Made by a program: the position numbers and the translations under genes | Shown: positions 869 to 24,000 of the stretch, piece by piece | How the letters are laid out: the number at the start of each line of letters is the position of its first letter | Position numbering within the stretch: position 1 is the stretch's first letter | From: Phycisphaerae bacterium | Lineage (GTDB): Bacteria > Planctomycetota > Phycisphaerae > Tepidisphaerales > Tepidisphaeraceae | DNA: 24,000 nucleotides | Direction of reading: 5' to 3' | Assembly: GCA_031377185.1 (NCBI GenBank) | Contig: JANMES010000070.1 | Span: forward strand, 1 to 24,000 | The notes under the pieces: generated by a model | The model's database searches: none | What the model was told of the DNA's origin: nothing | Seen by the model: only the letters and a program-made list of their open reading frames with translations

Positions 869-1024
869 ATTCCATTGTGATAGCTTTCCACTTTCCGTCC
901 CCGGGATTCTTCCCCTTGCCCGCAGGGTCGATATAATCGAACGCATCTTTCGTCGCGGCAAACAGTTCGGTCGTTCATCGGAGAACGGCTTTCGGTCGCG
1001 TTGAAAGGGAAGGAGTCTTGGCAC

Positions 1025-7759: not shown

Positions 7760-8156
7760 GATCCCCTACTTTCGATTCCATGCATTCTTCGATCCGCAGG
7801 TGGATCAGCTCGAGCATCAGATCATTCACTCCGAGCGGCGCAGCCAGTCGGAACGTCGTGTGCGGAAACTTCGCCGCCGCTTCGCGGACCAGACGCGGAA
7901 TGTCTTCCTGCCAGTGTTTTCCGGGCCCGAGGAAGAACGGACAGACAATCACGTCCGTCGCGCCACCCCGAACCGCCGACGCATACGCCGTTGAAATGGA
8001 AGGCTCGGCAATTTCCATGTGGGCCGGCTCGATGATCGAATACTCATCGGTGAACCGCTGTGCAAACCGCTCGACAATCTCATGAAGCAGTAGATTGCTC
8101 TCGACGCTGCGCGAGCCATGATCGACAATGAGAATGGCGGGCTTGTTCCTTCTCAT
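7752..8156 (-). CDS. cbiX: Small CbiX/SirB-type sirohydrochlorin chelatase (ferrochelatase for siroheme)
   Basis: 134-aa product with ILIVDHGSR, VIVCPFFLGPGKHWQEDIP. ATG 8156 forms an ATGA overlap with the hemC-upstream gene hemA's stop, and its own stop overlaps the hemC start by 8 nt. The 223-aa track ORF extension lies inside hemA and is rejected. Confidence 0.8.
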   Translation of the reverse strand: MRRNKPAILIVDHGSRSVESNLLLHEIVERFAQRFTDEYSIIEPAHMEIAEPSISTAYASAVRGGATDVIVCPFFLGPGKHWQEDIPRLVREAAAKFPHTTFRLAAPLGVNDLMLELIHLRIEECMESKVGDHV

Positions 8157-9424: not shown

Positions 9425-9543
9425 GACTCTGTCCTTCCACGGCGGTCTGCCTTACCACGGGCGATCCAAAGCCAAATGACATAACCCCATAGCAATGCAA
9501 GACCTATGGCGTATGCGAGTCGGAGGTAATCCAGAGCTAACAT
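9421..9543 (-). CDS. ccmD: Small single-TM protein, probable haem exporter protein CcmD (40 aa; below the ORF-track cutoff)
   Basis: Hand translation of the minus strand gives MLALDYLRLAYAIGLALLWGYVIWLWIARGKADRRGRTES. This is one hydrophobic helix plus a basic tail, in the canonical position after ccmC. The ATG lies inside the ccmC stop region (ATGTTAG), and its TGA overlaps the hemA ATG (TCATGA). Confidence 0.55.
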   Translation of the reverse strand: MLALDYLRLAYAIGLALLWGYVIWLWIARGKADRRGRTES

Positions 9544-10229
9544 GACGCGAATCCTCCGACGGTGGCTACTGTCGCACGAGTCTCTGAACTGTTATGCAAA
9601 CCGCGTTCCACGCGATTGAGACCATATTTCGTCGCAATCAGCCCCGCCGTGAACGCCGTTACCGCAATGAAGAACAAGATCAGAGTGGCCTTCATCTCGG
9701 GAGCCAATTCAATATGGGAAGGATGGATGTCGGGCATCAGGCGAACTGACAGGTAGACCAGCGGGACATCCAGGAAGGCGATCACCGCGTACACGGCGCA
9801 AATCAGCGCCCGTCGTTCCGACGACTCGATCGAACTGCGAATGATCAGGTAGACCGTATACAGCAGCCAAAGCACCAGGCTGAACGTCAGCCGTGGGCTC
9901 CAGGTCCACCATTGGCCCCAGGCGCATTTGCCCCATATCATTCCGGTCAGCAGGACGATCGTGCAAAGCTGCACCGACACCCGCGCCCCCGCCGCTGCCA
10001 GGTCGTCCCACCAGGTTTTGCGAGTTGCGAGATAGCCGATGCTGGCGACGAACGCCACGAGGCACGCGAGGAACGTATTGATCGCAACGGGCAGATGCAG
10101 GTAGAAGATCTTCTGGATCGGCCCCATCGTCTGCTCATCGGGCGTGTTGATAATGAGCCTCACCATCGCCGCCGTGAAAAGTCCGGCGGTGATCAGCCAG
10201 AAGCCTACATTGGATATTCGTTTCAGCAT
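9537..10229 (-). CDS. ccmC: Haem exporter / holo-CcmE synthetase subunit CcmC
   Basis: Contains the Trp-rich WWD-type motif WGKCAWGQWWTWSPRLT and the conserved periplasmic His context FYLHLP. It has six or more hydrophobic spans and sits in ccmABCD order. Confidence 0.9.
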   Translation of the reverse strand: MLKRISNVGFWLITAGLFTAAMVRLIINTPDEQTMGPIQKIFYLHLPVAINTFLACLVAFVASIGYLATRKTWWDDLAAAGARVSVQLCTIVLLTGMIWGKCAWGQWWTWSPRLTFSLVLWLLYTVYLIIRSSIESSERRALICAVYAVIAFLDVPLVYLSVRLMPDIHPSHIELAPEMKATLILFFIAVTAFTAGLIATKYGLNRVERGLHNSSETRATVATVGGFASC

Positions 10230-10238
10230 GGTTTGCTC

Positions 10239-10907
10239 CTACGGCTCCAGCACCCATTCAAACACCAGCCAGCTGACGACCAGGAAAATCGCATCAAACG
10301 CCACGAGGATGCCCAGCCCCAGCCCGCCGATCGGTTCGTGATCGCGGAAGAGGTGGATGAGCATCTGCGTCGACGAAATCACCAGCGGTAGCGTGATCGG
10401 GAAGATCATCATCGCCAGCAGCCCGCCCTGCAGTCGTGACGAGCTGGCCACCGCAGAAAACAGCGTGCCGACGGCGGCGAAGCCGACCATCGACAGCGCC
10501 ATCACCGCCGCGAATTGCCGCGGGGCGGCCGACAGATCGAATGAGAAGAACAGCACGCCGGCTGGGGTGACGACGATTGCGATCGCGAACATCAGCAGCA
10601 GGTTGCTGATCAGCTTGGCCGCATAGATCGCGCCGCGATCCATCGGGGCGATCATCAGCGCGGCTAACGCGCCGTCCTGCCGTTCGACGTTCATGGTTTT
10701 TTCAAAGCACAGCACGCCGCTGAACAGGTAAGCAACCCACAGCACCGCCGTCGCATCGAACGCCGCCGGTCGACCGCCCAGGCCAAGCCCGAGCACGACG
10801 ATAATCAGCACCGCCAGCACGATCACCAGTCCCAGCGTCTGTCGGCTGCGGGCTTCGATCCGCACGTCTTTCTGCACGAGGTGGAGGATTTGAGCGGTGG
10901 CGTTCAT
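10239..10907 (-). CDS. ccmB: Haem exporter membrane subunit CcmB
   Basis: 222-aa polytopic protein between ccmA and ccmC, with a CcmB-like N-terminus (KDVRIEARSRQ). ATGA overlap with the ccmA stop. Confidence 0.85.
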   Translation of the reverse strand: MNATAQILHLVQKDVRIEARSRQTLGLVIVLAVLIIVVLGLGLGGRPAAFDATAVLWVAYLFSGVLCFEKTMNVERQDGALAALMIAPMDRGAIYAAKLISNLLLMFAIAIVVTPAGVLFFSFDLSAAPRQFAAVMALSMVGFAAVGTLFSAVASSSRLQGGLLAMMIFPITLPLVISSTQMLIHLFRDHEPIGGLGLGILVAFDAIFLVVSWLVFEWVLEP

Positions 10908-11692
10908 GGCCCGTTGATCTCCGCCAGAACCAGTTCCGGATCGACGTTGTCCGTCGGGCGGTCGGATTCGACCTTGCCGTTGCTTAGCACGATGGCGCGC
11001 TTGGCGATTCGCAGGCTTTGCGGCACATCGTGGTTCACCATGATGATCGTCCGCCCGGCTGCGTTCATGCGGGTGAATAGTTTTTCCAACCCTTCAGACG
11101 ACCGTGCATCCAGCCCCGCGAACGGCTCGTCGGCCAACAGCAGATCGGGGTTGTGAACCAGCGCCCGCGCGATCGACACCCGCTGGGTCATCCCACGGCT
11201 GAAGGTTTTCACCGCGTCGTCGCCACGTTCTAGCAGGCCCACGGTGCGGAGAATGGCGTCGGTCTTGACCTTGACGTCGTCCACGCCGTACAGCTTGGCG
11301 AAAAACGCGATGTTCTGCCTGGCAGAAAGATCGCGGTAAAGCATGGATTGATGCCCGACGTACCCCACTCGCCTGCGGATCGCAGGGTCGGCGGTTCTGA
11401 GGGATTCGCCAAACAGTTCCACGTTCCCCTCGTCCGGCGTGATCATCCCGATCAGCAGCTTTAGAAGCGTGCTCTTTCCCGCGCCGTTGGAGCCCAGCAC
11501 GGCGAGAAACTCACCGGCGGCGATTTCAAGGCTGATGTCGCGCAGCACCGGGCGCTCATCGAGCCGCTTACCCACGTTGGTCAGTCGTACCGCGTTCAAT
11601 GGCTTGGCCCTGAAGGAGGCTCGCGTTGGAGAAAGAGTGGCGAACACGTTGCGCTCATGCTTTCTTGGGCTTAAGGAGGATGGCCGCACCAA
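10904..11692 (-). CDS. ccmA: Haem exporter ATP-binding subunit CcmA (ABC ATPase)
   Basis: Walker A GSNGAGKST, signature-like FSRGMTQR, Walker B LLLADEP. The start is uncertain: TTG 11692 overlaps orfX by 38 nt, and in-frame GTG 11647 lies 8 nt after the orfX stop. Confidence 0.85.
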   Translation of the reverse strand: MVRPSSLSPRKHERNVFATLSPTRASFRAKPLNAVRLTNVGKRLDERPVLRDISLEIAAGEFLAVLGSNGAGKSTLLKLLIGMITPDEGNVELFGESLRTADPAIRRRVGYVGHQSMLYRDLSARQNIAFFAKLYGVDDVKVKTDAILRTVGLLERGDDAVKTFSRGMTQRVSIARALVHNPDLLLADEPFAGLDARSSEGLEKLFTRMNAAGRTIIMVNHDVPQSLRIAKRAIVLSNGKVESDRPTDNVDPELVLAEINGP

Positions 11693-12893
11693 CGAACAGG
11701 ATGATCACGGCGCCCAGCCCGCCAACAATCTGCGGCGTCTTGTTGGCGCCGGGGATGTTGGCCGACGGAGCCGCCGCGAGTGCGGTCGGTTCGCCAGCGG
11801 CTTGCGCCTTCGGAACGTTGGGAAGGTTGCTGAGCACAACGCCCACCGCCGCGCCGGCCTTGATGTCCTGTCCTTTGAAGTACCGCGTAACGCTTCCGCG
11901 ATCGTTGGGCTTTGAGCCGAGCGATTCCAGCCCCTTGGCTTCAAGGGTCGAGCCGTCCTCGGGCACAAAAAGCATCATCTTGTCGATCCCGGCAGGCGGA
12001 TCGATCAGCAGATTGATCTTGCCCTCAACAGCAGGCACGCGATAGCGGAGTTGGATTGCCGTAGCTCCGGGCAACATCGGGTCGGAACTGACGATGCGGT
12101 CATTCACGATCGTCGCGCCGCCTGCCCGCAGGCCGGCCATCAGTTGCACGTCCGTGGCCCCTTTCGGCAGCGGCCAGGAGAGAGCTGCACGCTTGCCATC
12201 GGCACCGCTCGGTCCGAGGTACGCTCGGTCGGACGGGTTTTCGGTGTTCATCATCTCCATCACCACGGCACCGTCGCCAGCCGGGCTGACCATGACGTGA
12301 CGGACTTTCACCCGCCATTCCGGAGCGACGTCAGTCGTCTCATACACCGTAACGCCGATGCGCTGGCCGGTGCGTTGCATGTCCATCACCTCGCCTTGCG
12401 TGATAAAATCCACGCCATTGTGGGTTACTTTCACCAGCGGCTGGAACTCGACGAGGACCGGGATGTTCTCCACGGTGATTTTTCCATCGGCCTGCAGGCG
12501 CGAGGCGGTTTTGAAAACCACTTGCCCGTTGTGATACGCCTCGACGGTGACCGGATCGGCCCCGATCGCCGGCGCGCCGGCGGTGCCCTGTTGGGCTTCG
12601 ATGAAGAGTGTCGGCAGTTGCGGCTGAGTGGTCGGAACCGCGTTGGCGTTTTTGCCCATCCCTGGAATCTGCGGGTGCCCAGCCGGAAGTTTGCCGTCTT
12701 TGGCCTTTTGCATCAGATCTTTCAGATCAGGATGCCCACTCGGCAAAGCCGGAGCGTCCTGCTGCTGTTGTGCCTGTAATTGCGAAATGTCCGGATGACC
12801 CTTGGGCAACACCGGCGCGGTCGTCGGCGAAGCCGCCAACGCCAACGGCGAGACGCTCAACACATACACGATGGATTGAACCAGCTTGTTCAT
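11655..12893 (-). CDS. Uncharacterised periplasmic, C-terminally membrane-anchored protein embedded in the ccm operon; three LPxGHPx[IL] repeats plus beta-rich domains
   Basis: Signal peptide MNKLVQSIVYVLSVSPLALAA. Repeats are LPKGHPDI, LPSGHPDL and LPAGHPQI (aa 29-76). The central region is beta-strand-like. C-terminal TM is IVGGLGAVIILFVGAAILL followed by KPKKA. ATGA overlap with the ccmF stop. Confidence 0.8.
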   Translation of the reverse strand: MNKLVQSIVYVLSVSPLALAASPTTAPVLPKGHPDISQLQAQQQQDAPALPSGHPDLKDLMQKAKDGKLPAGHPQIPGMGKNANAVPTTQPQLPTLFIEAQQGTAGAPAIGADPVTVEAYHNGQVVFKTASRLQADGKITVENIPVLVEFQPLVKVTHNGVDFITQGEVMDMQRTGQRIGVTVYETTDVAPEWRVKVRHVMVSPAGDGAVVMEMMNTENPSDRAYLGPSGADGKRAALSWPLPKGATDVQLMAGLRAGGATIVNDRIVSSDPMLPGATAIQLRYRVPAVEGKINLLIDPPAGIDKMMLFVPEDGSTLEAKGLESLGSKPNDRGSVTRYFKGQDIKAGAAVGVVLSNLPNVPKAQAAGEPTALAAAPSANIPGANKTPQIVGGLGAVIILFVGAAILLKPKKA

Positions 12894-14950
12894 TGCCGCA
12901 CCTTCTGTTTCTTCGAGAGCTTGACGTGCTTCTTGTTCTGCTTGACTGCGGCCTGCGGCTTGGCGGTCGCCGGCGGTGGGGCAACGGCCTCAGTCATCGG
13001 AAGTGACTTGTGCGGCTCAAACCGCGGCAGCAGACAGAGGATTCCGCCGGCCGTCAGGACGATGCCGCCTACCCAGATCCAGCTCACCAGCGGATCGATG
13101 ATCGCCTGCACGGTGACGCGGGTTCCGTCCTGCTCCCAGCCGGCCAGCGTGAGATAGAGGTCTTCGCGCCAGGTCGATCGGATCGCGACCGAAGCGGACG
13201 ATTCCTCGGACTTGTCGTAGAACCGCCGCTGCGGGAGTAGCGTGCCCATCTCGCCAGCGGAGTTGGTGTAGGTCAGCACGGCCTGCACGGCGGAGAAGTT
13301 GACGTCGCGGACTTCCTCCAGCTTCACCAGCGCGAGGTCGTATTGCCCGATCCTGGCGGTTTGGCCGGGTTTGAGTTCGAAGTTCTGCTTTTCGCTGAAC
13401 TGACTCGACCCGACCACGCCGACGATGAACAGCAGGACGCCCACGTGCGTGATCTGCCCGCCGTAACGTCGGTGATTGCCGTCGAACAGGCGGAGGGTGG
13501 CTACCAGGAGATTCTCGTGGTGAGCGGACGAGCGAATCCACGCAGAGGCGATGAAATCGGCGGAAACGGTGAACGCGGCCGTGACGGAGATGAACGTTGC
13601 GGAGATCGCCCAGGCATTATGTATACCGCGGCCCCACACCACGCCCGCAGCTAGGACGCCGAGGATCGCCGGGATCGCCAGTTTGCGGCCGAGCAGATGG
13701 CCGGCGCTCTTGCCGTACCGCAGGAACGGCCCGGCCGCCATGATCGCCGCCAACACCAAGCTAACCGGACCGACGGTCGTGTTATAAAAACTTTGCGACA
13801 CACTGACCCCTTGAGGCATGAAAATGCCGCTGATCAGCGGGAAGATCGTCCCCACGAGCGTAATCCCGGTCATCGCGATCAGCAGCCACCCCGCTGCCAG
13901 AAACGCGCTCTCGCGGCCGACGAGGGATTCGATCTTCTGGTCGGTCGCCAGTGCTCGGCGTTTGCTGACAAGCAACAACACGCTAGAAATCACCAGCAAG
14001 CCGAGGAAGATCAGGAAAAACGTGCCGATCAGTGATTCGCCGAAACTGTGAACCGACTGCACCACGCCTGAGCGGGTCAGGTAAGTTCCGAAGATGCAGA
14101 GGATGAAGTTCACCGCGATCAGCGCGGCATTGAGGCCCTTAAACATGCCGCGTTGTTGCTGAACCATCACGGTGTGCAGCAGCGCCGTCGCGGTGAGCCA
14201 AGGAAGCAGCGAGGCGTTTTCAACCGGATCCCACGCCCAGTAGCCGCCCCACCCGAGTTCAACGTACGCCCACTGAGCGCCTAATAGAATGCCCACGCTC
14301 AGGAACAGCCAGGAAGCCACCGACCACCATCGCACGGCGCGCAGCCAACCGGCGTCGTCGCGGCCGGTTAGCAGCGCGCCGACCATCAGTGCGAACGGTA
14401 CGGCAAACCCGGCGTAGCCGAGAAACAGCATCGGCGGATGGGCAATCATGCCCGGATCCTGCAACATCGGATTCATCCCGTGCCCGTCGGCGGCCACCAC
14501 TGCGGCAAGCTTGAACGGGTTGGCGGCGAACAGGATCAACGCAGCGAAAAAGCCGCAAATCACCGCGAGCACGGCGGTTGTAAACGCCCGTTCGCGTGCG
14601 TCGGCCCGGTGCAGAAATACCGCAATCACCGAGAGAACCGCCAGAAACCATGCCCACAGCAGCAAGCTGCCTTCCTGTCCCGCCCAAAATGCGGCGAGCT
14701 TGTAACCGAATGGCAGTGCCTTCTCCGTGTAGTGGGTGACGTATTCCAGGCGGAAATCTGAATTAACCTCCGCGATCATCAACATCGCCGACGAGGCCGT
14801 AATAAGGCCTGCGAACAGAAACAAGCCTCGGTTGGCTAACGCCAGCAGATGTGCGTCACGCTTCTGGGCCGACGCAACGGAGAGCAGCAGCGCCATCGCA
14901 CTGACGAGAACTGCGGCACACAGACTATAGTTGCCGATTAAGATGGTCAT
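12890..14950 (-). CDS. ccmF: Cytochrome c haem lyase subunit CcmF
   Basis: 686-aa polytopic protein with the canonical WWD motif WGGYWAWDPVENASLLPWL. ATGA overlap with the ccmE stop. Confidence 0.95.
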   Translation of the reverse strand: MTILIGNYSLCAAVLVSAMALLLSVASAQKRDAHLLALANRGLFLFAGLITASSAMLMIAEVNSDFRLEYVTHYTEKALPFGYKLAAFWAGQEGSLLLWAWFLAVLSVIAVFLHRADARERAFTTAVLAVICGFFAALILFAANPFKLAAVVAADGHGMNPMLQDPGMIAHPPMLFLGYAGFAVPFALMVGALLTGRDDAGWLRAVRWWSVASWLFLSVGILLGAQWAYVELGWGGYWAWDPVENASLLPWLTATALLHTVMVQQQRGMFKGLNAALIAVNFILCIFGTYLTRSGVVQSVHSFGESLIGTFFLIFLGLLVISSVLLLVSKRRALATDQKIESLVGRESAFLAAGWLLIAMTGITLVGTIFPLISGIFMPQGVSVSQSFYNTTVGPVSLVLAAIMAAGPFLRYGKSAGHLLGRKLAIPAILGVLAAGVVWGRGIHNAWAISATFISVTAAFTVSADFIASAWIRSSAHHENLLVATLRLFDGNHRRYGGQITHVGVLLFIVGVVGSSQFSEKQNFELKPGQTARIGQYDLALVKLEEVRDVNFSAVQAVLTYTNSAGEMGTLLPQRRFYDKSEESSASVAIRSTWREDLYLTLAGWEQDGTRVTVQAIIDPLVSWIWVGGIVLTAGGILCLLPRFEPHKSLPMTEAVAPPPATAKPQAAVKQNKKHVKLSKKQKVRQ

Positions 14951-15369
14951 GGTTGGGCCTCGGCTCCGGTCTTCTTGGGATGGCCGGTCGGTTCATATTT
15001 GCTGGCGCACTTGGTCATCAGCACATCGGCGTGGAAGACATGGTCTGCGCCCATTTGGCCTTCGACGACGATTTCATGGTCGGCGCGGAACATGTCCGGA
15101 ATCACACCGCAGTAAACGACGTGCAACTGCTCCTTCGTGCCCTTCATATTGAAATCGGCGACAAGCCCGGCACGGTCGATGATCAGGTTCCCCGCGGCCA
15201 CCTTCCCGTTCAGGCGAACGCGGCGGGATTGGTAGGAGGGATCATTCACGTACTGATCCAGGGGCAGGAAATAGACCCAACCCTTCTTCACCCCCGCGAT
15301 GGCGAGGTAACTGATGGCCGCCACCAGGACGAAGGCTCCAAACGACAGTTTTAGCTTCATCGAGTTCAT
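14947..15369 (-). CDS. ccmE: Haem chaperone CcmE, variant with Cys replacing the haem-binding His (CXXXY)
   Basis: N-terminal membrane anchor followed by an OB-fold-like body (VRLNGKVAAG, HVVYCGVIPDMFRADHEIVVEG). The C-terminal motif is LMTKCASKYEP where canonical CcmE has HxxxY. Confidence 0.9.
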   Translation of the reverse strand: MNSMKLKLSFGAFVLVAAISYLAIAGVKKGWVYFLPLDQYVNDPSYQSRRVRLNGKVAAGNLIIDRAGLVADFNMKGTKEQLHVVYCGVIPDMFRADHEIVVEGQMGADHVFHADVLMTKCASKYEPTGHPKKTGAEAQP

Positions 15370-15398
15370 AGCGAATCCCGGTTATCCGCAGAACACAG

Positions 15399-15414
15399 AA
15401 CAAACCCGGTGCCA
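15399..15414 (-). promoter_or_regulatory. Near-consensus sigma-54 (-24/-12) promoter facing the ccmE operon
   Basis: The minus strand reads TGGCAC-cgggt-TTGTT about 29 nt upstream of the ccmE ATG. The -24 element is perfect, but the -12 element has T instead of the conserved C (TTGT vs TTGC). Confidence 0.35.
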
Positions 15415-15715
15415 CACGGAATGGGCACTGGAATTGGAGCTTTTTCCTCAATAATCGCCCCTTTTGGAGCAAAATTGGGCTTCCTGGCGAGCGGTGGATA
15501 GGTGGAAAAGATCGCGAAAGTCTCAACATTGAGAATACGAAGGGGGAGGGAATCCCGCCTGCGTCAGAGAATCAGTCTCAATACGCATAAGTCTTTGTCT
15601 TCGCGGGATCGGGAAGGGAGTCTTGCTCGGGTTTCCCACTTTTGGAACGCGGGGGGAAAACTGCCTTCACAAGTGCGTTTTTGACGTGATTATCCGCCTC
15701 CAGAATTCTATCGAC

Positions 15716-15731
15716 TGGCACCGGCGTTGCT
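15716..15731 (+). promoter_or_regulatory. Consensus sigma-54 (-24/-12) promoter upstream of the cytochrome/NHL/barrel cluster
   Basis: The plus strand reads TGGCAC-cggcg-TTGCT, an exact match to TGGCAC-N5-TTGCW. It lies about 90 nt upstream of the ATG at 15822. Confidence 0.65.
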
Positions 15732-15821
15732 TCGCACCTGTTGTCCTCCTATGGAACGGACGGACGTGGCCGGGCAGCGGAGTCCCAATGTAAACCCCGC
15801 GATCTTTTTCGGAGATCTTTT

Positions 15822-16526
15822 ATGAAACGCTTAACACTATTAGCTGCGATCATTCCCATGATGCTAGCAGCCGCAGCCTATGGGCAGACCAAAAGTCTGA
15901 CTCAAATCACTGCGACCAAACATAATTTCAACGCCGACGGATATGCATGGGCCGACGGCGAGATCTGCAAACCCTGTCACACCCCGCACAATGCGATGCA
16001 GGATGCCAGCATCAGCACGCGTCTGTGGAACCACAAGCTCACCACCGCAACCTACACGTTGCACGATGGTGTGACCACCGCCACCTACGACCAGGCGTTG
16101 GACCGCTACAGCCGCCTGTGCATGAGCTGCCATGACGGTACGGTCGCTCTGGACGCTTTCGGAATCAACTCCGACGGCACACCGAATGACGGCGTCGACA
16201 CCGCCGGTTTCAAGAGGACACCGTCCAATCTTGGCACGAACCTGGTGAACGATCACCCGGTCGGGCTGGGCGCGAACTACACCTCAGCCTCGGCCAAGCC
16301 ATACTTCAATAGTATGACGACCCCGGTTGCTCCGAGCACGACCTATAAGATCGGCGCTCTGAGCCTGGTGAACGCCACCGTCAGTGGCGCCAGCGTCCAA
16401 GTTGTTGGGTGCAGCACCTGCCACACCCCGCACGGTAAAGGTCTGACTGCCGGCAACCCGTACAAGCACCTGCTGGTGATGGATAACAGCAACAGTGCTC
16501 TGTGCCTGAGTTGCCACATCAAGTGA
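15822..16526 (+). CDS. Secreted tetrahaem cytochrome c
   Basis: GGAGA sits 6 nt upstream of ATG 15822. Signal peptide MKRLTLLAAIIPMMLAAAAYG. Four CXXCH motifs: CKPCH, CMSCH, CSTCH, CLSCH. The upstream part of the track ORF (15741-15821) is not needed. Confidence 0.9.
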   Translation: MKRLTLLAAIIPMMLAAAAYGQTKSLTQITATKHNFNADGYAWADGEICKPCHTPHNAMQDASISTRLWNHKLTTATYTLHDGVTTATYDQALDRYSRLCMSCHDGTVALDAFGINSDGTPNDGVDTAGFKRTPSNLGTNLVNDHPVGLGANYTSASAKPYFNSMTTPVAPSTTYKIGALSLVNATVSGASVQVVGCSTCHTPHGKGLTAGNPYKHLLVMDNSNSALCLSCHIK

Positions 16527-16545
16527 TGAAAGAGAGGCCGCCGGG

Positions 16546-16568
16546 GGGCCAGTGCAATGCACTGGCCC
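16546..16568 (+). terminator. Perfect GC-rich palindrome 20 nt after the tetrahaem cytochrome stop; possible intra-operon attenuator or terminator
   Basis: GGGCCAGTGCA-a-TGCACTGGCCC has 11-nt arms that are exact reverse complements. No clear T-tract follows (cttacc). Confidence 0.4.
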
Positions 16569-16677
16569 TTACCGGCGACCCCACACAAGTCGTTGCATCG
16601 GCCCCGTCCGCCCGTTCCATAGATAGTAAGGTCCGCACTTGAGGGAGTCGAGTCAGTTTGAAAGGTTGGATTTGAAG

Positions 16678-17925
16678 ATGTACACACCCCACCGAATCGC
16701 TGTGAACGCCTTGGTCCTCTGCTCCCTGTTCGCTTTAATCGGTTGCCAATCGCAAAAACAAGTCACCGCCCCTCGCGAGATCTCCTTCTGGCCCGCTCCG
16801 CCGGATGAACCTCGGATCCAGTTCCTGACCTCCTACGTCTCGTCGGCTGATGTCGCCGAAAGGCAGACGGGCATCGAGGACTCGATCTACGGCAAAGCCG
16901 ATATCCTGCCGATCACCAAGCCGTACGGCGTGGCGATGTGGCAGGGGAAGGTCTATGTATGCGACATCCGCAATAAAGGCGTCACTGTTTTGGACTTGCG
17001 ATCGAAACTCACCCGCGTCTTAGGGGCCGGTGGTGTGGGCGTCATCGAGAAAGCCATCGACATCGCCATCGCGCCTGATGGGTTTAAGTACGTCGTTGAC
17101 GGAAACCGCGCCGTGATTGTCGCGTTTGACGCTCAGGACAAGTTCTCCGGTGTGTTCGGGCCCAAGGATTTCAATCCGGTCAGCATCGCGGTTTACCAGA
17201 ACGAACTGTTCGTCGCCGATTTCCGCGGGCAGAAAATCAAAGTCCTCGACCGCGTCACAGGGAAGCAACTCCGCACGATCGGCGAAGCCGGGCCCGATGA
17301 CGGGCAATTCGTCCGCCCGCTGGCGGTACGCGTTTCGCCGAAGGGGATGGTCGTCGTCTCCGACATCATGAAATGCCGCATCCAGACCTTCACCCGCGAT
17401 GGCAAGTTCGTCTCTGCTCACGGCCAGATGGGCAACAGGCCCGGCGATCTGAACAAGCCCAAGCACATGGCGTTTGATGCCAACGGCTTCATTTACGTCG
17501 TCGATGCCGGCTTCAACAACGTGCAGATCTTTGACGACGAAGGCAAAGTTGTCGACTATTTCGGCTCGGCCGGCGCTCACCCGGGGTCGATGGATCTGCC
17601 GGCCGGTATCTTCGTTCAGGAAGGGGATTTAGAGCTGTTCGAGAAGTACATTCATCCCGCGTTCCAGCCCGAGCGATTGATCGTCGTCACCAACCAGTTC
17701 GGACCGCACCGCGTGGCGGTGTATGCTCAGGGTCACCTGAAGAAAGGCAAAACCGTCGCCGACGTGCTGCCGGGTCGGGCGAATGTGGCTGCCGGGATCG
17801 AAGACCCCAACAAGGCCGCCACCACCCAGCCCGTACCGCTGAAAGACCGGCTGCCCGCGCCGCTGGATACGCCCTCGACGAAGCCGACCTCGGCACCGGC
17901 CGCGCCGTCGCCTTTCGTGAAGTAA
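16678..17925 (+). CDS. NHL-repeat six-bladed beta-propeller lipoprotein (paralog 1) with a Pro/Thr-rich C-terminal tail
   Basis: Lipobox LFALIGC. Repeated NHL-type blades: PYGVAMWQGKVYVCD, AIAPDGFKYVVD, IAVYQNELFVADFRGQKIKVLD, VRVSPKGMVVVSD, MAFDANGFIYVVDAGFNNVQIFD. Confidence 0.85.
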   Translation: MYTPHRIAVNALVLCSLFALIGCQSQKQVTAPREISFWPAPPDEPRIQFLTSYVSSADVAERQTGIEDSIYGKADILPITKPYGVAMWQGKVYVCDIRNKGVTVLDLRSKLTRVLGAGGVGVIEKAIDIAIAPDGFKYVVDGNRAVIVAFDAQDKFSGVFGPKDFNPVSIAVYQNELFVADFRGQKIKVLDRVTGKQLRTIGEAGPDDGQFVRPLAVRVSPKGMVVVSDIMKCRIQTFTRDGKFVSAHGQMGNRPGDLNKPKHMAFDANGFIYVVDAGFNNVQIFDDEGKVVDYFGSAGAHPGSMDLPAGIFVQEGDLELFEKYIHPAFQPERLIVVTNQFGPHRVAVYAQGHLKKGKTVADVLPGRANVAAGIEDPNKAATTQPVPLKDRLPAPLDTPSTKPTSAPAAPSPFVK

Positions 17926-17980
17926 CTCGACCCAGGCGCCCCACTACATCCTCCCGGATCAGGGCGCCCTCAGGTGCCCC

Positions 17981-18640
17981 ATGGCCGACCGATGCTCATC
18001 CCGATGGACTCTGCTTCGGCGGATCATCGTACCCCTGCTGGCGATCGTCATGATCGCCAGTTGGTTCGGATGTACAGCACAAAAGCGGTACGTCGTCCTG
18101 AGCTTCTTCTTCGACGGCGTGCCTGACCCAAGCAAACCCGCCCCCGGATCACGCGGGACCATCGGCGTCAACGGCCAGGTGGTACTCGCCTCCCACGTCC
18201 ACAAACCCTACGCCGACGGCAACTGCCAGGCCTGCCACACCGGCGGAACCGACAGCGTCTTTCGCGCCAGCAGCGGGTTGAGTATTGAATCCGACGTCTG
18301 CCTGAAATGCCACCAGAAAGTTCTCACCCAATACCCCGTCATGCACGGTCCGGTGACGAGCGTGGAGTGCCTGCGGTGTCATACGCCACACGAATCGAAC
18401 TCCGCGCACTTGCTGAGCAGCGCTTCTCCGCGGGTGTGCGTGCAATGTCACACGCCCGAGCTTTTGTCGACCAAACCCCCCGAGCATATGGTTAAGACCG
18501 CCGACTGCCTGAGCTGCCACAGCGGGCACGGCGGACTGAAACACAAGCTCCTGCTCGACAGGACAACCACCCGTCCGGCAACGCAGCCTGCACCCTCCTC
18601 GAAAATCGCGATGGCCAACCCCCAGCGGGAGAAGCCATGA
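17981..18640 (+). CDS. Pentahaem c-type cytochrome, probable lipoprotein
   Basis: Five CXXCH motifs: CQACH, CLKCH, CLRCH, CVQCH, CLSCH. The N-terminal hydrophobic span ends in the lipobox-like WFGC. The stop overlaps the start of the next gene (ATGA at 18637-18640). Confidence 0.9.
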   Translation: MADRCSSRWTLLRRIIVPLLAIVMIASWFGCTAQKRYVVLSFFFDGVPDPSKPAPGSRGTIGVNGQVVLASHVHKPYADGNCQACHTGGTDSVFRASSGLSIESDVCLKCHQKVLTQYPVMHGPVTSVECLRCHTPHESNSAHLLSSASPRVCVQCHTPELLSTKPPEHMVKTADCLSCHSGHGGLKHKLLLDRTTTRPATQPAPSSKIAMANPQREKP

Positions 18641-20652
18641 GGAACCCGAGCTGCATCCCGACAGGCTCAAGGCTTCTCGTTGCAGCCGCTTGTGTCCTGC
18701 TGGCCAGCCGGCTGGCGATGGCACAATCCGACGAAACACCGGTATACGGCGCTAGACAACGTCCTCCTGTGGTTGATTTTGAACGCATTACCGGCGACTT
18801 CAGCCTGACCGTAAGAGCGTCAAAGGAGGAGCAGACACCGAAAACCGGCGACAAGACCAAGACCAACGAATTGATCTTTGAAGAAGCTCTCACGCTCCGC
18901 ACTAACGGATACGTCGTCACGCCTCGATTCGCGGTCATCAACCTGAGCGGCCGGTTCGGGCTCAATCAGGATTATCTCGATCAAACCGATCGAACGGAGA
19001 GTACCAACTCCACTATCTACGAGTGGGACACCTCGGCCACCTTTCTGCAGGACAGTTCCAAGCCGCTCACGCTCTACTCGTCGCAGTCGCGATCGTTGGT
19101 CGATCGGTCGTTCGGATCAACCCTTGAGGACACCACCACGACGTATGGCGCCCTGTGGCAACTGAGATCTCCCACCCTGCCCACCGAGCTGCGCGTCTAT
19201 CGCGAAACCCAAACCCAGTCGGCTCTGAACAGTAGTGAGCCTGATTTCAACATCGAACGCAACGCTTTCGACTGGCACACGGAATACAAGATCTCCGAGC
19301 GCCAGCACGCAGACTGGAACTACCACCTGGAATCGACCGACCAGAACAGTTCGTCAGGCGTGAGCGAAACCAGCACGTCTCAATCGGCGTCGCTGACACA
19401 CTCGTACGTTTTTGCCGACAAGCTGGGATCATCGCTGGATTCGGGCGTAAGCTGGTCCCATGTCACCGGACTGTTCCCGATCGAAACCGAACGATGGAGC
19501 GAACGCCTCCGGCTGCGCCACACCAGAAAATTTGAGACCAACTACGAGTATTCCATCGACCGACAGGACTACAACACCAACAGCCAAATCCGACAGCGCG
19601 GCGTGGTCGGATTTCGCCACCAGTTGTACGAAAGCCTCACCACGATCGGCCGAACCGGTTGGCAGCAGATTGATCTGTCGGACGACAGCCAAACCACCAA
19701 CTGGTTCGACACGCTCGACTTCAACTACAACAAGAAGATCCCGTACGGGCTGATGCTGGACACGTTGAGCCTGTCCTACGATCGTCAGAACAACACCGCT
19801 CGGCAGGCCACTACGCAGGTGCAGAACCAACCATTGATCTTTACCAGCTATGCTCCGGTGATCATCCAGCAGCGGAATATCGTTCCGTCGTCGGTGGTGA
19901 TCCGCGATGCGACCGGGCAGCTCTATCTTCCCGGCGACGGCTATACCGTGATCGCCGTGCCCAACGGTGTGCAGATTCAGCCCGAACCGGGCGGGCCACT
20001 TCCGTTGAATGAACCGCTGTTCCTCTTCTACGACATCGGACCGGCACCGGCGAATATCATCACCTCCAGGGGACTGAGTATCAGCATCCGCTACGAAATC
20101 CAGCGGGGCTGGCTCAAGGGAGTCAGCCCGTACGCTCGGTATGGCATGATCGATCAGGACGTGGAAGGCGGGATGGATCAGGTCAAACCCAATTCGTCCC
20201 GCAGCTATATTTATGGCGTGGATTACCGGGTGCGGGATTTCCGATTCAAAGCCGAGCGGGAAATCGTCGAAAGCGACCTGTTTCCCTACGACACCACCCG
20301 CTACGAAGCCCGATACGACCACCGCGCCACCGTCTCCACCACCATTTCTCTCAGTGCCATCTACAGCGACACCCATTACACTGAGCAAAATACCGAAATC
20401 CAAACGCTTCTGGTAAACGGAGGATTGGCCCACCAGATCAGCCGAAACCTCACTTTCAACGCCTCGGCGGCCTGGGTTAACATCGACGACAATACCAGCG
20501 GCATGACCAACGGCTGGGAGGAAGAACTCAGGATCACCTGGCAACATCGACAGACCGAGATCTACGGTCGAGTCCGTAACGCCACACTCGACACCGATAA
20601 CGACACCCGGTCGTTCCAGTTCCTGGAAGTTGGCATTCGGCGGGAGTTTTAG
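18637..20652 (+). CDS. Predicted large outer-membrane beta-barrel protein (porin component of a cytochrome conduit?)
   Basis: Signal peptide ending LAMAQ. Composition is rich in Ser, Thr, Asn, Gln, Tyr and Asp, with many short alternating amphipathic stretches. No Cys or haem motifs. The C-terminus is ...LEVGIRREF, with the terminal Phe typical of BAM substrates. Confidence 0.7.
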   Translation: MRNPSCIPTGSRLLVAAACVLLASRLAMAQSDETPVYGARQRPPVVDFERITGDFSLTVRASKEEQTPKTGDKTKTNELIFEEALTLRTNGYVVTPRFAVINLSGRFGLNQDYLDQTDRTESTNSTIYEWDTSATFLQDSSKPLTLYSSQSRSLVDRSFGSTLEDTTTTYGALWQLRSPTLPTELRVYRETQTQSALNSSEPDFNIERNAFDWHTEYKISERQHADWNYHLESTDQNSSSGVSETSTSQSASLTHSYVFADKLGSSLDSGVSWSHVTGLFPIETERWSERLRLRHTRKFETNYEYSIDRQDYNTNSQIRQRGVVGFRHQLYESLTTIGRTGWQQIDLSDDSQTTNWFDTLDFNYNKKIPYGLMLDTLSLSYDRQNNTARQATTQVQNQPLIFTSYAPVIIQQRNIVPSSVVIRDATGQLYLPGDGYTVIAVPNGVQIQPEPGGPLPLNEPLFLFYDIGPAPANIITSRGLSISIRYEIQRGWLKGVSPYARYGMIDQDVEGGMDQVKPNSSRSYIYGVDYRVRDFRFKAEREIVESDLFPYDTTRYEARYDHRATVSTTISLSAIYSDTHYTEQNTEIQTLLVNGGLAHQISRNLTFNASAAWVNIDDNTSGMTNGWEEELRITWQHRQTEIYGRVRNATLDTDNDTRSFQFLEVGIRREF

Positions 20653-20653
20653 G

Positions 20654-21682
20654 ATGAGACACCACCTCGCACTATTCCTGCTTGTGATCGCCGCCGGTTG
20701 TAGCACACCGGCGGGCGTGATCTTTCCCGACCTGCCCAACGCCCCCCGCTGGCCTGGACCGCCCGATCAGCCGCGAATCCGATACGTCGGACAACTGCAG
20801 AGCAATGTCGATCTCAAGCCCGGCGTATCGTTTGGAGAAAAACTGAACCGCGCGATCTTCGGTAAGAACCCAACCCAGACCATGCTCACCCCGTTCGCCG
20901 TCTGCACCGACAACGTCTCCCGCGTATTCGTTGCTGACTCCAACGCACAGGTGGTACACGTTTTCGATCTCAAAACACGCAAGTACTCGCAATGGCGGCC
21001 GGAAAACAAACACAAGCGATTCGATCAGCCCGTGGGCATCGCGTACGACCCGGGCGGGAGGTTGCTCGTCTCGGATTCCGTTGCAGCGTGCATCTACGTC
21101 TTCAACGCCGACGGCAAATACACCGGTACGATCGGCAACGGTCATTTCATGAGACCCTGCGGGCTGACGATCCATTCGATCACACGCCGTATCTACGTCG
21201 CAGATTCCGCGGCGCATCAGGTCGTTGTCCTATCCGCCAACGGGCAGGAACTGGTGCGGGTCGGCAAGCGAGGCAACAAGCCCGGGGAGTTCAACTTCCC
21301 CATCTCCGTCGCCATCGATCGCCAGGGCCGGCTCTACGTTGCCGACGCGCTCAACTTCCGCGTGCAGCAGATCGCGCCGGACATGAAGACCGTTCAGGTC
21401 TTCGGGCGTAAGGGCGACGCACCGGGATATTTCTCTCAGCCCAAGTGCGTGGCGGTGGATAACGAAGATCACGTGTATGTGGTCGATAATCAGTTCGAAT
21501 CCGTGCAGGTGTTTAATTCCGACGGCGCCTTGCTGATGGATTTCGGCGAAGAAGGGCGCGGCCCCGGGCAGTTCTGGCTGCCCACGGGCCTGTTCATCGA
21601 TTTCGGCAACCGAATCTGGATCGCCGACAGTTACAACCGCCGACTACAGGTGTTTGATTATCTCCCGGAGGTCAAGCCATGA
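20654..21682 (+). CDS. NHL-repeat six-bladed beta-propeller lipoprotein (paralog 2)
   Basis: GGGAG lies 7 nt upstream of ATG 20654, which is 1 nt after the barrel gene stop. Lipobox VIAAGC. NHL blades: VFVADSNAQVVHVFD, IAYDPGGRLLVSD, IYVADSAAHQVVVL, VAIDRQGRLYVADALNFRVQQI, VAVDNEDHVYVVDNQFESVQVFN, IWIADSYNRRLQVFD. Confidence 0.85.
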   Translation: MRHHLALFLLVIAAGCSTPAGVIFPDLPNAPRWPGPPDQPRIRYVGQLQSNVDLKPGVSFGEKLNRAIFGKNPTQTMLTPFAVCTDNVSRVFVADSNAQVVHVFDLKTRKYSQWRPENKHKRFDQPVGIAYDPGGRLLVSDSVAACIYVFNADGKYTGTIGNGHFMRPCGLTIHSITRRIYVADSAAHQVVVLSANGQELVRVGKRGNKPGEFNFPISVAIDRQGRLYVADALNFRVQQIAPDMKTVQVFGRKGDAPGYFSQPKCVAVDNEDHVYVVDNQFESVQVFNSDGALLMDFGEEGRGPGQFWLPTGLFIDFGNRIWIADSYNRRLQVFDYLPEVKP

Positions 21683-23292
21683 AACGGCTGATGTTTATCC
21701 TCGCGTGGTGGATGCTGGCCGCTACCGCGGTTGCACAGCAGCAGAGCATTGTGAACAGCCCGCACAACCTTTCCGCCAACGGCCCGGGGGCAGTGCGCGC
21801 CAGCAATGAGCAGGAAGTTTGTATCTTTTGCCATACGCCGCACAACGCCGCTCCCGTCCAGCCGCTATGGAACCGCAACACCCCGGCCAGCACATATCGG
21901 GTGTATTCCAGCAACTCCCTGCAAGCCGCCCCGGGCCAGCCGACGGGGTCGTCAAAGCTCTGTCTGTCGTGTCACGACGGGACGATCGCGCTCGGCAGCG
22001 TGCTTTCGCGCGAGCAGCCGATCGCCATGGCCGGCGGAATCACCACCCTGCCGCCGGGCACTACCAATCTGGGCACCGATCTGTCGGATGATCATCCGAT
22101 CTCCTTCAAGTACGATGCGGCGTTGACACAAAAGAATCTGAAACTCAAAGACCCCGCGCTGCTCCCTCCCGACGTAAAGCTCGACGCGAACAAGGAAATT
22201 CAATGCACCAGTTGCCACAACGCCCACGACAATCAGTTCGGCAAATTCCTCGTCATGGACAACACCCATTCCGCGCTTTGCAGCAGTTGCCATAGCAACG
22301 GCACGACCTCAGTGGTGGGTCACAGCGAATGCGCCAACTGCCACCAGCAGCACAGCGCCCCGAGTGGACCTTACCTGCTGAAAGCCGCAAAGGTGAGCGA
22401 TACCTGCCTGACTTGCCACAGCGGCACGGGCGGCGCAAACCAGGGGGCGGACATCGCCAGCGACATCAATAAGTACAGCAAGCACGACACATCCAGCCCC
22501 GTGAACCTGGCCGATCCGTATCCGAACAATGTCGGCTGCAGCGATTGCCACGAACCGCACACGATGACCGGCGTGATTGCGTCAGCCCCGTCAATCTCCG
22601 GGAAGTTCGGCAAAATCAATGGCGTGAATGCTTCGGGCGTGCCCGTGGTCAACGCGCAGTACGAGTACGAGGTTTGCTTCAAGTGCCACGCCGACAAATC
22701 CGCCGTCCCGCCGACAGTCAGCCGGCAGGTCGTCCAAGCCAATCTGCGACTGAAGTTTGACCCGACGGCCGTCAGCTTCCATCCGGTGGAGGCGGCTGGT
22801 CGAAACACCAATGTGCCTAGCCTGCGGCCGGGCCTGTCGACCGCGAGCATCATCTACTGCAACGACTGCCACAACTCCGACACCGGCAAGAAAGCCGGCA
22901 CTGGCGGGCCGGACGGCGTGCATGGGTCGATCAACAAGCCTCTGCTCGTTGCGCGGTACGACACGCTCGATAATACCCCAGAATCCGAAGCCACCTACGC
23001 ACTCTGCTACAAGTGCCACGACCGCAACAACATCCTGGCCAACGCTTCGTTCACCAAGCACAAGGAACATGTGGTCGATAAACGCACGACATGCTCTACT
23101 TGCCACGATCCGCACGGTATCCCATCGGCCCAGGGAACGGCGACGACCAACGCGAACCTGATCAACTTCGACACGTCGATCGTGCAGCGCGACCCAGTGA
23201 CGCAGAAACTCGAATACCGCTCCACCGGCCCCGGCCATGGCACATGCACGCTAAGCTGCCACGGCGTGGTTCACTCGGGCACAGCGTATTGA
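21679..23292 (+). CDS. Secreted multihaem cytochrome c with 11 CXXCH motifs plus one C-terminal CX3CH
   Basis: ATGA overlap with the preceding NHL gene. Signal peptide MKRLMFILAWWMLAATAVA. Motifs: CIFCH, CLSCH, CTSCH, CSSCH, CANCH, CLTCH, CSDCH, CFKCH, CNDCH, CYKCH, CSTCH, and CTLSCH. Confidence 0.9.
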   Translation: MKRLMFILAWWMLAATAVAQQQSIVNSPHNLSANGPGAVRASNEQEVCIFCHTPHNAAPVQPLWNRNTPASTYRVYSSNSLQAAPGQPTGSSKLCLSCHDGTIALGSVLSREQPIAMAGGITTLPPGTTNLGTDLSDDHPISFKYDAALTQKNLKLKDPALLPPDVKLDANKEIQCTSCHNAHDNQFGKFLVMDNTHSALCSSCHSNGTTSVVGHSECANCHQQHSAPSGPYLLKAAKVSDTCLTCHSGTGGANQGADIASDINKYSKHDTSSPVNLADPYPNNVGCSDCHEPHTMTGVIASAPSISGKFGKINGVNASGVPVVNAQYEYEVCFKCHADKSAVPPTVSRQVVQANLRLKFDPTAVSFHPVEAAGRNTNVPSLRPGLSTASIIYCNDCHNSDTGKKAGTGGPDGVHGSINKPLLVARYDTLDNTPESEATYALCYKCHDRNNILANASFTKHKEHVVDKRTTCSTCHDPHGIPSAQGTATTNANLINFDTSIVQRDPVTQKLEYRSTGPGHGTCTLSCHGVVHSGTAY

Positions 23293-23482: not shown

Positions 23483-24000
23483 TTACGGCTTCTGCGTCGA
23501 CAGTAACTTCCGTCCATCAGGGCTGGCTTCGTACGCCTTGCGGAAAAAGTCCGACGCTCCCGCGAAGTCCTTCTCGTGGGAGGCGATCAGGCCGGCGGCG
23601 TAACAGGCCTCGGCGGGTTGTGGGTTCAGGCGGATCGCTTCCTTGGCCATCAGCTTGGCGTCGTCCCACTTATCGAGCGCGATCAACGCCCAGGTCTTCA
23701 CCAACGCCGTCTGCCATGCCGGCAGTGCGTCAGGTTTGACGCGGGAGAGCAGGTCGAGCGCATCCTTGGGCGCGTTCTGTGAAACGAGGATGCGCGCGAG
23801 CATCACCTGCAACTCGGCGTTGTCGGCCTGAAGTTTGAGGTCCGCCTCGACTTCCGTCCGGGCTGCCTTGACGTCTCCGGAATCGAAGAGACGTCTGGCG
23901 ACCTGCATGTGACGGGCGGCTTTCTGGTCGTCGCCGTCAGTGACGACTTCTCGCGTGGTGAGCCGCCGCTGCAGGGTCGGGCCGTCCAACTTGCCGGAGG
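23483..24000 (-). CDS. TPR-repeat protein, C-terminal part (gene runs off the right edge of the window)
   Basis: Helical-repeat sequence with TPR-like A/L/Y spacing (AEACYAAGLIASHEKDFAGASDFFRKAYEASP). The frame stays open from 23989 to the window end, so the true start probably lies outside the window. Confidence 0.6.
   Translation of the reverse strand, partial: SGKLDGPTLQRRLTTREVVTDGDDQKAARHMQVARRLFDSGDVKAARTEVEADLKLQADNAELQVMLARILVSQNAPKDALDLLSRVKPDALPAWQTALVKTWALIALDKWDDAKLMAKEAIRLNPQPAEACYAAGLIASHEKDFAGASDFFRKAYEASPDGRKLLSTQKP

Follow-up and report, generated by a model that had tools for sequence, protein, structure and literature searches.

A candidate OmcE-type cytochrome-nanowire module in a Phycisphaerae bacterium, with a 12-haem cytochrome that carries an OmcE-like head

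Structures of cytochrome nanowires are available for only a few organisms, and open questions surround the export, the anchoring and the electrical connection of these filaments to the cell. Among the solved structures are the OmcE filaments of Geobacter sulfurreducens [Protein Data Bank (PDB) entry 7TFS; PMC12954529] and of D. soudanensis (PDB entry 9YUQ; Petersen et al., 2025, bioRxiv 10.1101/2025.10.22.684050). Minimal omcE gene clusters always encode two multihaem cytochromes, two beta-propeller lipoproteins, OmcE itself and a large beta-barrel, and they adjoin genes for haem synthesis and cytochrome maturation (Petersen et al., 2025). These authors list five phyla for OmcE homologues, and report that filament initiation, anchoring and termination are unknown and that no candidate for them was noticed in the omcE operons. 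Here, we describe a cluster of six co-directional genes (g1 to g6; positions 15822-23292, + strand; 21 haem motifs in total) in a 24,000-nucleotide stretch of DNA, hereafter the window, from a Phycisphaerae bacterium (phylum Planctomycetota; contig JANMES010000070.1, positions 1 to 24,000). With a probability that we put at roughly two in three, this cluster is a planctomycete-type omcE cytochrome-nanowire module that would pass electrons from respiration through the outer membrane to an extracellular, OmcE-like cytochrome. The original prediction, made from the letters of this DNA, had read the locus as a porin-cytochrome conduit of the Mtr or Pcc type. Its core, an outer-membrane electron-transfer module built from multihaem cytochromes and a large barrel, holds up, as do its six genes, their haem counts and their lipoboxes when checked against open reading frames (ORFs) and motif counts. 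It had missed the OmcE homology of g1 and of the head of g6; because of this homology, the likely function shifts from a plain Mtr/Pcc-type conduit to a nanowire-type module.

The first gene of the cluster, g1 (15822-16526, + strand), codes for a 234-residue protein with a Sec signal and four CXXCH motifs, an OmcE-like tetrahaem cytochrome that is a candidate filament or surface subunit. Residues 16-234 align over the full length with residues 17-232 of OmcE in PDB entry 7TFS (E = 1.3e-15), and the D. soudanensis filament protein (9YUQ) is matched over the full length as well (E = 1.1e-14); beyond these two entries there was no significant match among solved structures. A direct comparison with G. 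sulfurreducens OmcE gave E = 1.3e-18, and an independent hidden Markov model (HMM) of the OmcE family, built from 120 OmcE homologues, scored 112 bits over positions 1-229. All eight Cys residues and all eight haem-ligating His residues of OmcE are kept in g1, with the four CXXCH motifs in register along the entire protein. The non-motif His residues that complete the bis-His ligation in OmcE (H31, H58, H149, H208) align with H34, H56, H145 and H204 of g1, while OmcE H118, a residue that is not conserved in D. soudanensis either, has no counterpart in g1. In OmcE filaments, one of the non-motif His residues bonds to a haem in the adjoining subunit. Across 56 tetrahaem and 82 12-haem relatives, the eight Cys and eight His residues are 93-100% conserved, and four CXXCH motifs were counted in 55 of 58 tetrahaem relatives. 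On the evidence of these alignments, g1 is a full-length member of the OmcE family in which every haem ligand is kept. The neighbours by which Petersen et al. (10.1101/2025.10.22.684050) pick likely nanowire formers among OmcE homologues, namely genes for a beta-propeller lipoprotein and an outer-membrane beta-barrel, are represented here by g2 and g5 and by the large barrel g4.

The OmcE relationship is even closer in the last gene of the cluster, g6 (21679-23292, + strand). Its product, a 12-haem cytochrome of 537 residues with a Sec signal but no lipobox, contains 11 CXXCH motifs and one CTLSCH motif of the CX3CH type. Residues 12-206 match OmcE (7TFS) with E = 1.3e-34 and the OmcE-family HMM scores 170 bits, both better than for g1. 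This head (residues 1-206) keeps the same eight Cys and eight His residues of OmcE, and eight further haems then follow. All 12 haem motifs, including the CX3CH motif, are invariant in 21 relatives, 80 of the 81 12-haem relatives counted have 11 CXXCH motifs, and identity within the family is 43-63% across phyla. Behind the head, the final paired-CXXCH unit of the OmcE domain recurs at residues 217-248 (19 bits). We considered, and rejected, a tail made of two more OmcE-like repeats: only the segment 217-248 repeats, and the segment 'KYSKHD...CSDCHEPH' (residues 265-296), at about 3 bits, is not significant. The latter segment resembles the N-terminus of OmcE, and the two segments together give a weak hint that the tail perhaps arose from a partial duplication. 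In our view, this OmcE-headed 12-haem cytochrome, possibly the base of a filament, is the most interesting feature of the cluster.

Two of the remaining genes encode NHL beta-propeller lipoproteins. One, g2 (16678-17925, + strand; 415 residues; lipobox LIGC), has Pfam NHL repeats and a Pro/Ala/Thr-rich C-terminal tail. The other, g5 (20654-21682, + strand; 342 residues; lipobox AAGC), has five NHL repeats and a DUF5128 match in Pfam, along with weak matches to SGL and arylesterase-type propellers, and is six-bladed as judged by its matches to solved NHL propellers (NHL domain of TRIM71, E = 3.5e-61). The two proteins are paralogous (29% identity, E = 6e-41), and neither contains a haem motif. 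Both match the 361-residue NHL lipoprotein of the Geobacter omcE cluster, g5 over its full length (E = 2e-56) and g2 with E = 5e-39. Shortly after the lipobox Cys, g2 and g5 have in common a WP(A/G)PPD(E/Q)PRI motif; the NHL protein of the Geobacter omcE cluster (locus L083, 8338-9423) has FWPPLP in its place, and the segment may be a conserved tether or interaction segment. The original prediction had regarded propeller subunits as a novelty of this locus. According to Petersen et al. (2025), however, minimal omcE clusters always include two beta-propeller lipoproteins, and NHL proteins are found beside multihaem cytochromes in D. ferrophilus (PMC5815863, PMC9769857), in the Occ cluster (10.1101/695007), in the Uet cluster (10.1101/2022.05.06.490989), in Gallionella (PMC10734462) and in Geoalkalibacter (PMC12016550). 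Far from being a new addition, the propellers recur as an accessory, still unexplained, in systems of this class as a whole.

Between the two propeller genes lie g3 and g4. The product of g3 (17981-18640, + strand) is a 219-residue pentahaem lipoprotein cytochrome (five CXXCH motifs; lipobox WFGC) whose best match among solved structures is MtrA (6r2q_A, E = 2.4e-10), and relatives with five CXXCH motifs are present in 55 loci. The protein encoded by g4 (18637-20652, + strand) is a predicted outer-membrane beta-barrel of 671 residues ending in ...RREF; its only two Cys residues both lie within the signal peptide, and the C-terminal F671 is invariant among relatives. An AlphaFold2 (AF2) model, with a predicted local distance difference test (pLDDT) score of 85.4, is all-beta. 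In this model DSSP assigns 29 long strands and a short strand at residues 461-467 that is perhaps the thirtieth, giving an estimate of about 28-30 barrel strands, for which simple barrel geometry, not measurement on coordinates, yields about 5 nm between backbones. MtrB, which houses MtrA, is a 26-strand barrel. The predicted g4 barrel would be at least as wide as that of MtrB, and wide enough for a folded haem protein. Foldseek returned large barrels only, with MtrB at the top (TM-score 0.41) and TonB-dependent receptors and LptD at similar scores. A large barrel at this position, as originally claimed, is hence what the model depicts.

Family searches gave a divided answer. They recovered the NHL repeats in g2 and g5 and paired-CXXCH/c7-type domains in g1, g3 and g6, but nothing for g4: no Pfam or NCBIfam family matches this protein, hence none links it to MtrB/PioB-type barrels, and a sequence profile search of the PDB gave nothing below E = 0.48. 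The kinship with Mtr and PioAB systems suggested at the outset fares no better for the cytochromes, with g3 and g6 scoring 48.7 and 51.8 bits on TIGR03508 (MtrA/DmsE family), far below its cutoff of 192.2; NCBIfam also returned weak, sub-threshold matches to the GSU2203 decahaem family. The g4 family is large, with 2568 representatives at E <= 1e-3 in an exhaustive profile search; the 10 hits of a word-based search, which made the family look rare, were a product of that search method. A beta-rich insert of about 70 residues (approximately 401-470) separates strands 18 and 19 of g4; it has two invariant Gly residues (G433, G453) and could be a plug or docking domain.

The cluster as a whole recurs in other genomes. 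Our synteny counts refer to the 80 best loci from other genomes, and many of the incomplete loci are cut by contig ends. In 41 of these 80 loci, all six families occur together on one strand, so that the six-gene arrangement is not a chance one, and a g5-like gene is adjacent to the 12-haem gene in 77. Synteny beyond this contig, on which the original prediction had made itself depend, is thus found, and in several phyla; loci with all six families come from Planctomycetota, Bacteroidota (Ignavibacteria among them), Calditrichota, KSB1 and Myxococcota, and across phyla the six genes keep company with genes for cytochrome maturation. A circularly permuted order (g5-like propeller, 12-haem, tetrahaem, g2-like propeller, pentahaem, barrel) is seen in Calditrichota, Ignavibacteria and KSB1, and these permuted loci (L028, L036, L038, L047, L062, L065, L073, L074) hold all six families where the contig allows. 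Another contig carries a 42%-identical barrel in the same six-gene order beside CcmF and CcmE. Relatives of g6 number more than 7600 in the database and occur in at least 590 species genomes (one genome scanned per species); most hosts are Planctomycetota, and the others include Verrucomicrobiota, Bacteroidota (with Ignavibacteria), Calditrichota, KSB1, Myxococcota, Nitrospirota, Nitrospinota, Woeseiaceae and Burkholderiales. Of these hosts, only Nitrospirota and the proteobacterial groups (Pseudomonadota) fall within the five phyla listed for OmcE homologues by Petersen et al. (10.1101/2025.10.22.684050), and Planctomycetota are absent from that list. An omcE-type parts list appears to exist in a distinct, highly conserved version in at least 10 phyla, which are themselves abundant in soil and sediment. 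Porin-cytochrome clusters containing 'OmcE-like' cytochromes are described for Verrucomicrobiota and Acidobacteriota in a 2026 preprint on peat, so that part of the spread of the module is already being noticed. What is new here, as far as sequence comparison can tell, is that a distinct barrel is combined with an OmcE-headed 12-haem cytochrome, and that this combination is widespread beyond the phyla from which omcE clusters have been described. In three Verrucomicrobiota loci (L026, L041 and L052; around positions 6800-8800), about 2 kb separate the g3-like from the g5-like gene, and phmmer finds no barrel in this interval, which probably holds a more divergent one.

The junctions within the cluster are as originally given: g3 and g4 overlap by ATGA, a single nucleotide separates g4 from g5, and g5 and g6 again overlap by ATGA. 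The last four genes (g3 to g6) are translationally coupled. Upstream of the cluster, the predicted sigma-54-type -24/-12 element TGGCACCGGCGTTGC lies at 15716-15730 (+ strand), 92 nucleotides in front of the g1 ATG. It is the sole -24/-12 match in the window and, with at least one match in 12 of 100 shuffled sequences, is on its own only mildly unlikely. We nevertheless accept TGGCACCGGCGTTGC as a real sigma-54-type promoter, in line with the original prediction, because 18 of 56 related loci have such an element, mismatched at no more than one position, at this same distance (212-310 nucleotides upstream of the first CXXCH motif in the tetrahaem gene), whereas the background rate is 0.026 per 490 nucleotides. 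Directly 3' of the g1 stop codon is a GC-rich hairpin without a U-tract (16539-16577, + strand; dG = -39.5 kcal/mol, z = -4.36). Hairpins with z < -2 occur within 110 nucleotides 3' of the tetrahaem gene in 55% of 55 related loci, compared with 11% after the g2-like gene, and were found in relatives from several phyla; the G. sulfurreducens omcE gene has a canonical terminator directly downstream. The g1 hairpin is a candidate attenuator or transcript stabiliser, and it would fit a g1 subunit produced in larger amounts than its machinery, a pattern typical of filament subunits.

Taken together, these results are best read as a candidate electron conduit in the outer membrane that would export an OmcE-like surface cytochrome or filament and anchor it. 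In such a scheme, the neighbouring Ccm system would make the holo-cytochromes in the periplasm, and the 28-30-strand barrel g4 would hold or pass a folded haem protein. The non-lipoprotein g6 would occupy g4 in the way that MtrA occupies MtrB, with its eight-haem tail extending into the periplasm, where the lipoprotein g3 and upstream carriers could feed electrons into it; a NapC/NirT-type cytochrome is encoded just past the window. Outside the cell, the OmcE-like head of g6 would dock g1 subunits through the contact between a His and the neighbouring haem that is used in OmcE filaments, and g1 may polymerise. The NHL lipoproteins g2 and g5 would serve as outer-membrane scaffolds or assembly chaperones. 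With the hairpin 3' of g1, expression of the subunit gene could exceed that of the machinery genes, and the sigma-54-type promoter would put the whole unit under an activator.

The boldest part of this scheme is that g6 forms the base of an OmcE-type nanowire, its head joining the first subunit by the His-haem swap and its eight-haem tail running through the barrel into the periplasm. We regard this part on its own as doubtful, and propose it tentatively. If it were true, a single protein would both anchor the filament and wire it to the cell, the question of anchoring would have a testable answer, and OmcE-type filaments would be implied in Planctomycetota, Bacteroidota, Verrucomicrobiota, Calditrichota and others. 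The fusion of an OmcE-like head to an eight-haem wire is in any case a concrete candidate for the junction between filament and membrane.

Several observations weigh against a nanowire module. The identity between g1 and OmcE is only 31%, haem and His counts alone cannot tell a filament subunit from a monomeric tetrahaem cytochrome, and the polymerisation of g1 into a filament is a candidate property, read from a gene. The strand count and lumen size of g4 come from DSSP on one AF2 model and not from coordinates, and the AF2 model of g6 (alignment of 21 sequences) has a pLDDT of 36 and is unusable for shape or for a fold search. The occupant of the barrel may be g3 instead of g6: its gene lies upstream of, and overlaps, the barrel gene, as mtrA does with mtrB, and MtrA is its best match. 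In a phmmer comparison g4 did not hit the 752-residue protein encoded beside Geobacter omcE, and a g4-family HMM of 127 sequences gave no more than 6 bits on three Geobacter-type proteins. Likeness between g3 or g6 and the cytochromes of the Geobacter omcE cluster is confined to the generic paired-CXXCH unit (E = 8e-25 between g3 and the 370-residue Geobacter cytochrome, through repeated units of this kind; about 23 bits for an HMM of the g6 tail). Because the barrel lacks detectable homology and the cytochromes match only through this unit, the machinery may be partly analogous, not orthologous, to that of Geobacter.

A rival reading is a plain MtrAB/Pcc-type porin-cytochrome conduit, in which g3 or g6 would thread the barrel, g1 would be a monomeric surface or periplasmic tetrahaem cytochrome, the NHL proteins would be passive scaffolds and no filament would form. 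The large barrel with its MtrB fold match and the MtrA-like position and best match of g3 agree with it; moreover, g3, g6 and the barrel family vary together and depart from their Geobacter counterparts, while OmcE-like proteins accompany either set, and nothing in the sequence proves polymerisation. We nonetheless judge it unlikely, given that the only solved matches of g1 are subunits of OmcE filaments, with every ligand kept including the N-terminal His region, that the parts list equals that of clusters whose OmcE filaments were purified, that the hairpin behind g1 suggests an excess of subunit, and that none of the Mtr, DmsE or MtrB family models is matched at its threshold. A different question, which overlaps with either of these readings, is that of direction: whether electrons flow out to minerals or humics, or are taken up, cannot be read from the sequence. 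The same hardware could serve electron uptake, with Fe(II), minerals, cathodes or partner cells as the source, a role suggested for the Uet cluster in Tenderiales and Gallionella as well as for the NHL-cytochrome clusters of D. ferrophilus. Cathode- and iron-oxidising bacteria do have similar parts lists (tetrahaem cytochrome, barrel, two NHL proteins, 11-CXXCH cytochrome), a limiting electron donor induces the NHL-cytochrome genes of D. ferrophilus, and g6 relatives are present in metagenome-assembled genomes of Burkholderiales, Nitrospirota and Nitrospinota. Set against this are the absence from the window of the Uet-specific prolyl isomerase, cupredoxin and trihaem c7 genes, the characterisation of OmcE itself in metal- and electrode-reducing bacteria, and a host lineage that looks like heterotrophic Phycisphaerae; we judge uptake less likely than not. 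Very improbable, finally, is a periplasmic redox enzyme with a catalytic, cytochrome-fed NHL propeller in the manner of hydrazine synthase and with the barrel as its substrate porin. Propeller-plus-cytochrome enzymes offer a loose precedent, to which the weak SGL and arylesterase-type matches of g5 may be added; yet the closest relatives of the propellers are protein-binding NHL domains and the omcE-cluster NHL protein, no cytochrome has a catalytic-haem signature (the CX3CH motif is the sole unusual one), and a 28-30-strand barrel far exceeds a substrate porin. We rejected the hydrazine-synthase analogy, drawn in the original prediction, on the grounds that the propellers are lipoproteins without a haem motif and that the barrel is very large.

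The genes around the cluster fit into the same picture at several points. Divergently oriented to it is an operon for cytochrome c maturation and haem synthesis (5781-15369, - strand), which Pfam assignments and ORFs resolve into CcmE, F, A, B and C, HemA, HemC and a NirDL/Ahb-like protein, in agreement with the back-to-back arrangement noted originally; the divergent CcmF-CcmE arrangement is also kept in locus L002. The NirDL-like gene (5781-6920, - strand) encodes a two-domain protein resembling siroheme decarboxylases and lies beside hemA and hemC, which suggests the alternative (Ahb) route of haem synthesis; next to it are the pntAB transhydrogenase genes (2760-5722). A 412-residue ORF between ccmF and ccmA (11655-12893, - strand) is without a Pfam match and is, at a guess, a divergent CcmH/I-type factor, and a 563-residue ORF at 1001-2692 (+ strand) is likewise without a Pfam match. 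On the other side of the cluster, the 3' part of a convergent gene for a TPR protein (23483-24000, - strand) runs off the end of the window; the gene is complete in locus L001, a longer contig copy (9262-10251; 329 residues). This secreted TPR protein sits between the six-gene cluster and a convergent operon of haem-rich cytochromes that L001 reveals past the 3' end of the window (10248-16431, - strand). TPR proteins are also listed in the literature beside Uet and Geobacter-type omcE clusters. The haem-motif counts of the operon in L001 are 13+2, 12+3 (a lipoprotein) and 11+1 (with an N-terminal membrane anchor and a NapC/NirT domain), and a fourth gene is cut by the end of the locus. NapC/NirT-type cytochromes adjoin the module both in the window's own contig and in a Woeseiaceae locus. 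The haem-rich operon probably encodes the section of the same electron path that lies in the inner membrane and the periplasm.

How does the cluster compare with systems already described? With MtrCAB, PioAB and MtoAB (structure 6R2Q) it shares the logic of a cytochrome in a large barrel and a cytochrome gene directly upstream of the barrel gene, while it differs in the lack of an MtrC/OmcA-type surface decahaem cytochrome and in that g3 is a five-haem lipoprotein. The OmcS-companion (osc) cluster of G. sulfurreducens, attributed to Shen et al. in 2025, reportedly groups a nanowire subunit gene with channel-like proteins, a beta-propeller-like protein and a chaperone; its subunit OmcS is a hexahaem cytochrome unrelated in sequence to OmcE. 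By description, the clusters of D. ferrophilus IS5 (DFE_0448-0451 and DFE_0461-0465) and the Occ cluster of Ca. Dechloromonas occultata resemble the window in combining multihaem cytochromes with NHL beta-propeller genes, and their propellers have been proposed to stabilise an outer-membrane cytochrome complex (PMC5815863, PMC9769857, 10.1101/695007); no porin gene is apparent in the DFE clusters, however, and OccP is a 922-residue undecahaem cytochrome. Similar in its protein classes, as far as published descriptions allow the likeness to be drawn, is the Uet (undecahaem electron transfer) cluster of Ca. Tenderia electrophaga and Gallionella, which has an extracellular tetrahaem cytochrome (UetA), a predicted 28-strand barrel (UetC), two NHL proteins (UetH, UetI) and UetJ with 11 CXXCH motifs, exactly the number found in g6, and which is adjoined by cytochrome-maturation and TPR genes and proposed for electron uptake. 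It differs from our cluster in gene order and in the prolyl isomerase UetB, the cupredoxin UetF and the trihaem c7 proteins UetD, UetE and UetG; by ORFs and Pfam, 15822-23292 holds six genes only, none of which encodes a prolyl isomerase, a cupredoxin or a trihaem protein.

The closest counterpart is the omcE cluster of Desulfuromonadia (the GSU0618 region of G. sulfurreducens; D. soudanensis WTL), whose parts list is identical to that of the window. Both have an OmcE-family tetrahaem cytochrome, homologous NHL lipoproteins and adjacent genes for cytochrome c maturation, in both the subunit gene is followed by a structured element (the hairpin in the window, the terminator in Geobacter), and the window resembles the minimal marine-type clusters in being without glycosylation genes. 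The differences concern the gene order; the barrel, which has 671 residues in the window versus about 750 and no detectable sequence homology; the companion cytochromes, with five and 12 haems as opposed to 11 and eight in Geobacter, where neither has the complete OmcE-like head that we find in the window; the maturation system, Ccm (system I) in place of ResB/CcsB (system II); and the hosts, since Planctomycetota, Verrucomicrobiota, Bacteroidota, Calditrichota, KSB1 and Myxococcota lie outside the preprint's five phyla. Compared at the level of its predicted proteins, the window thus shares architecture, subunit family and propeller family with the known omcE cluster, while its barrel and its cytochromes are a different set.

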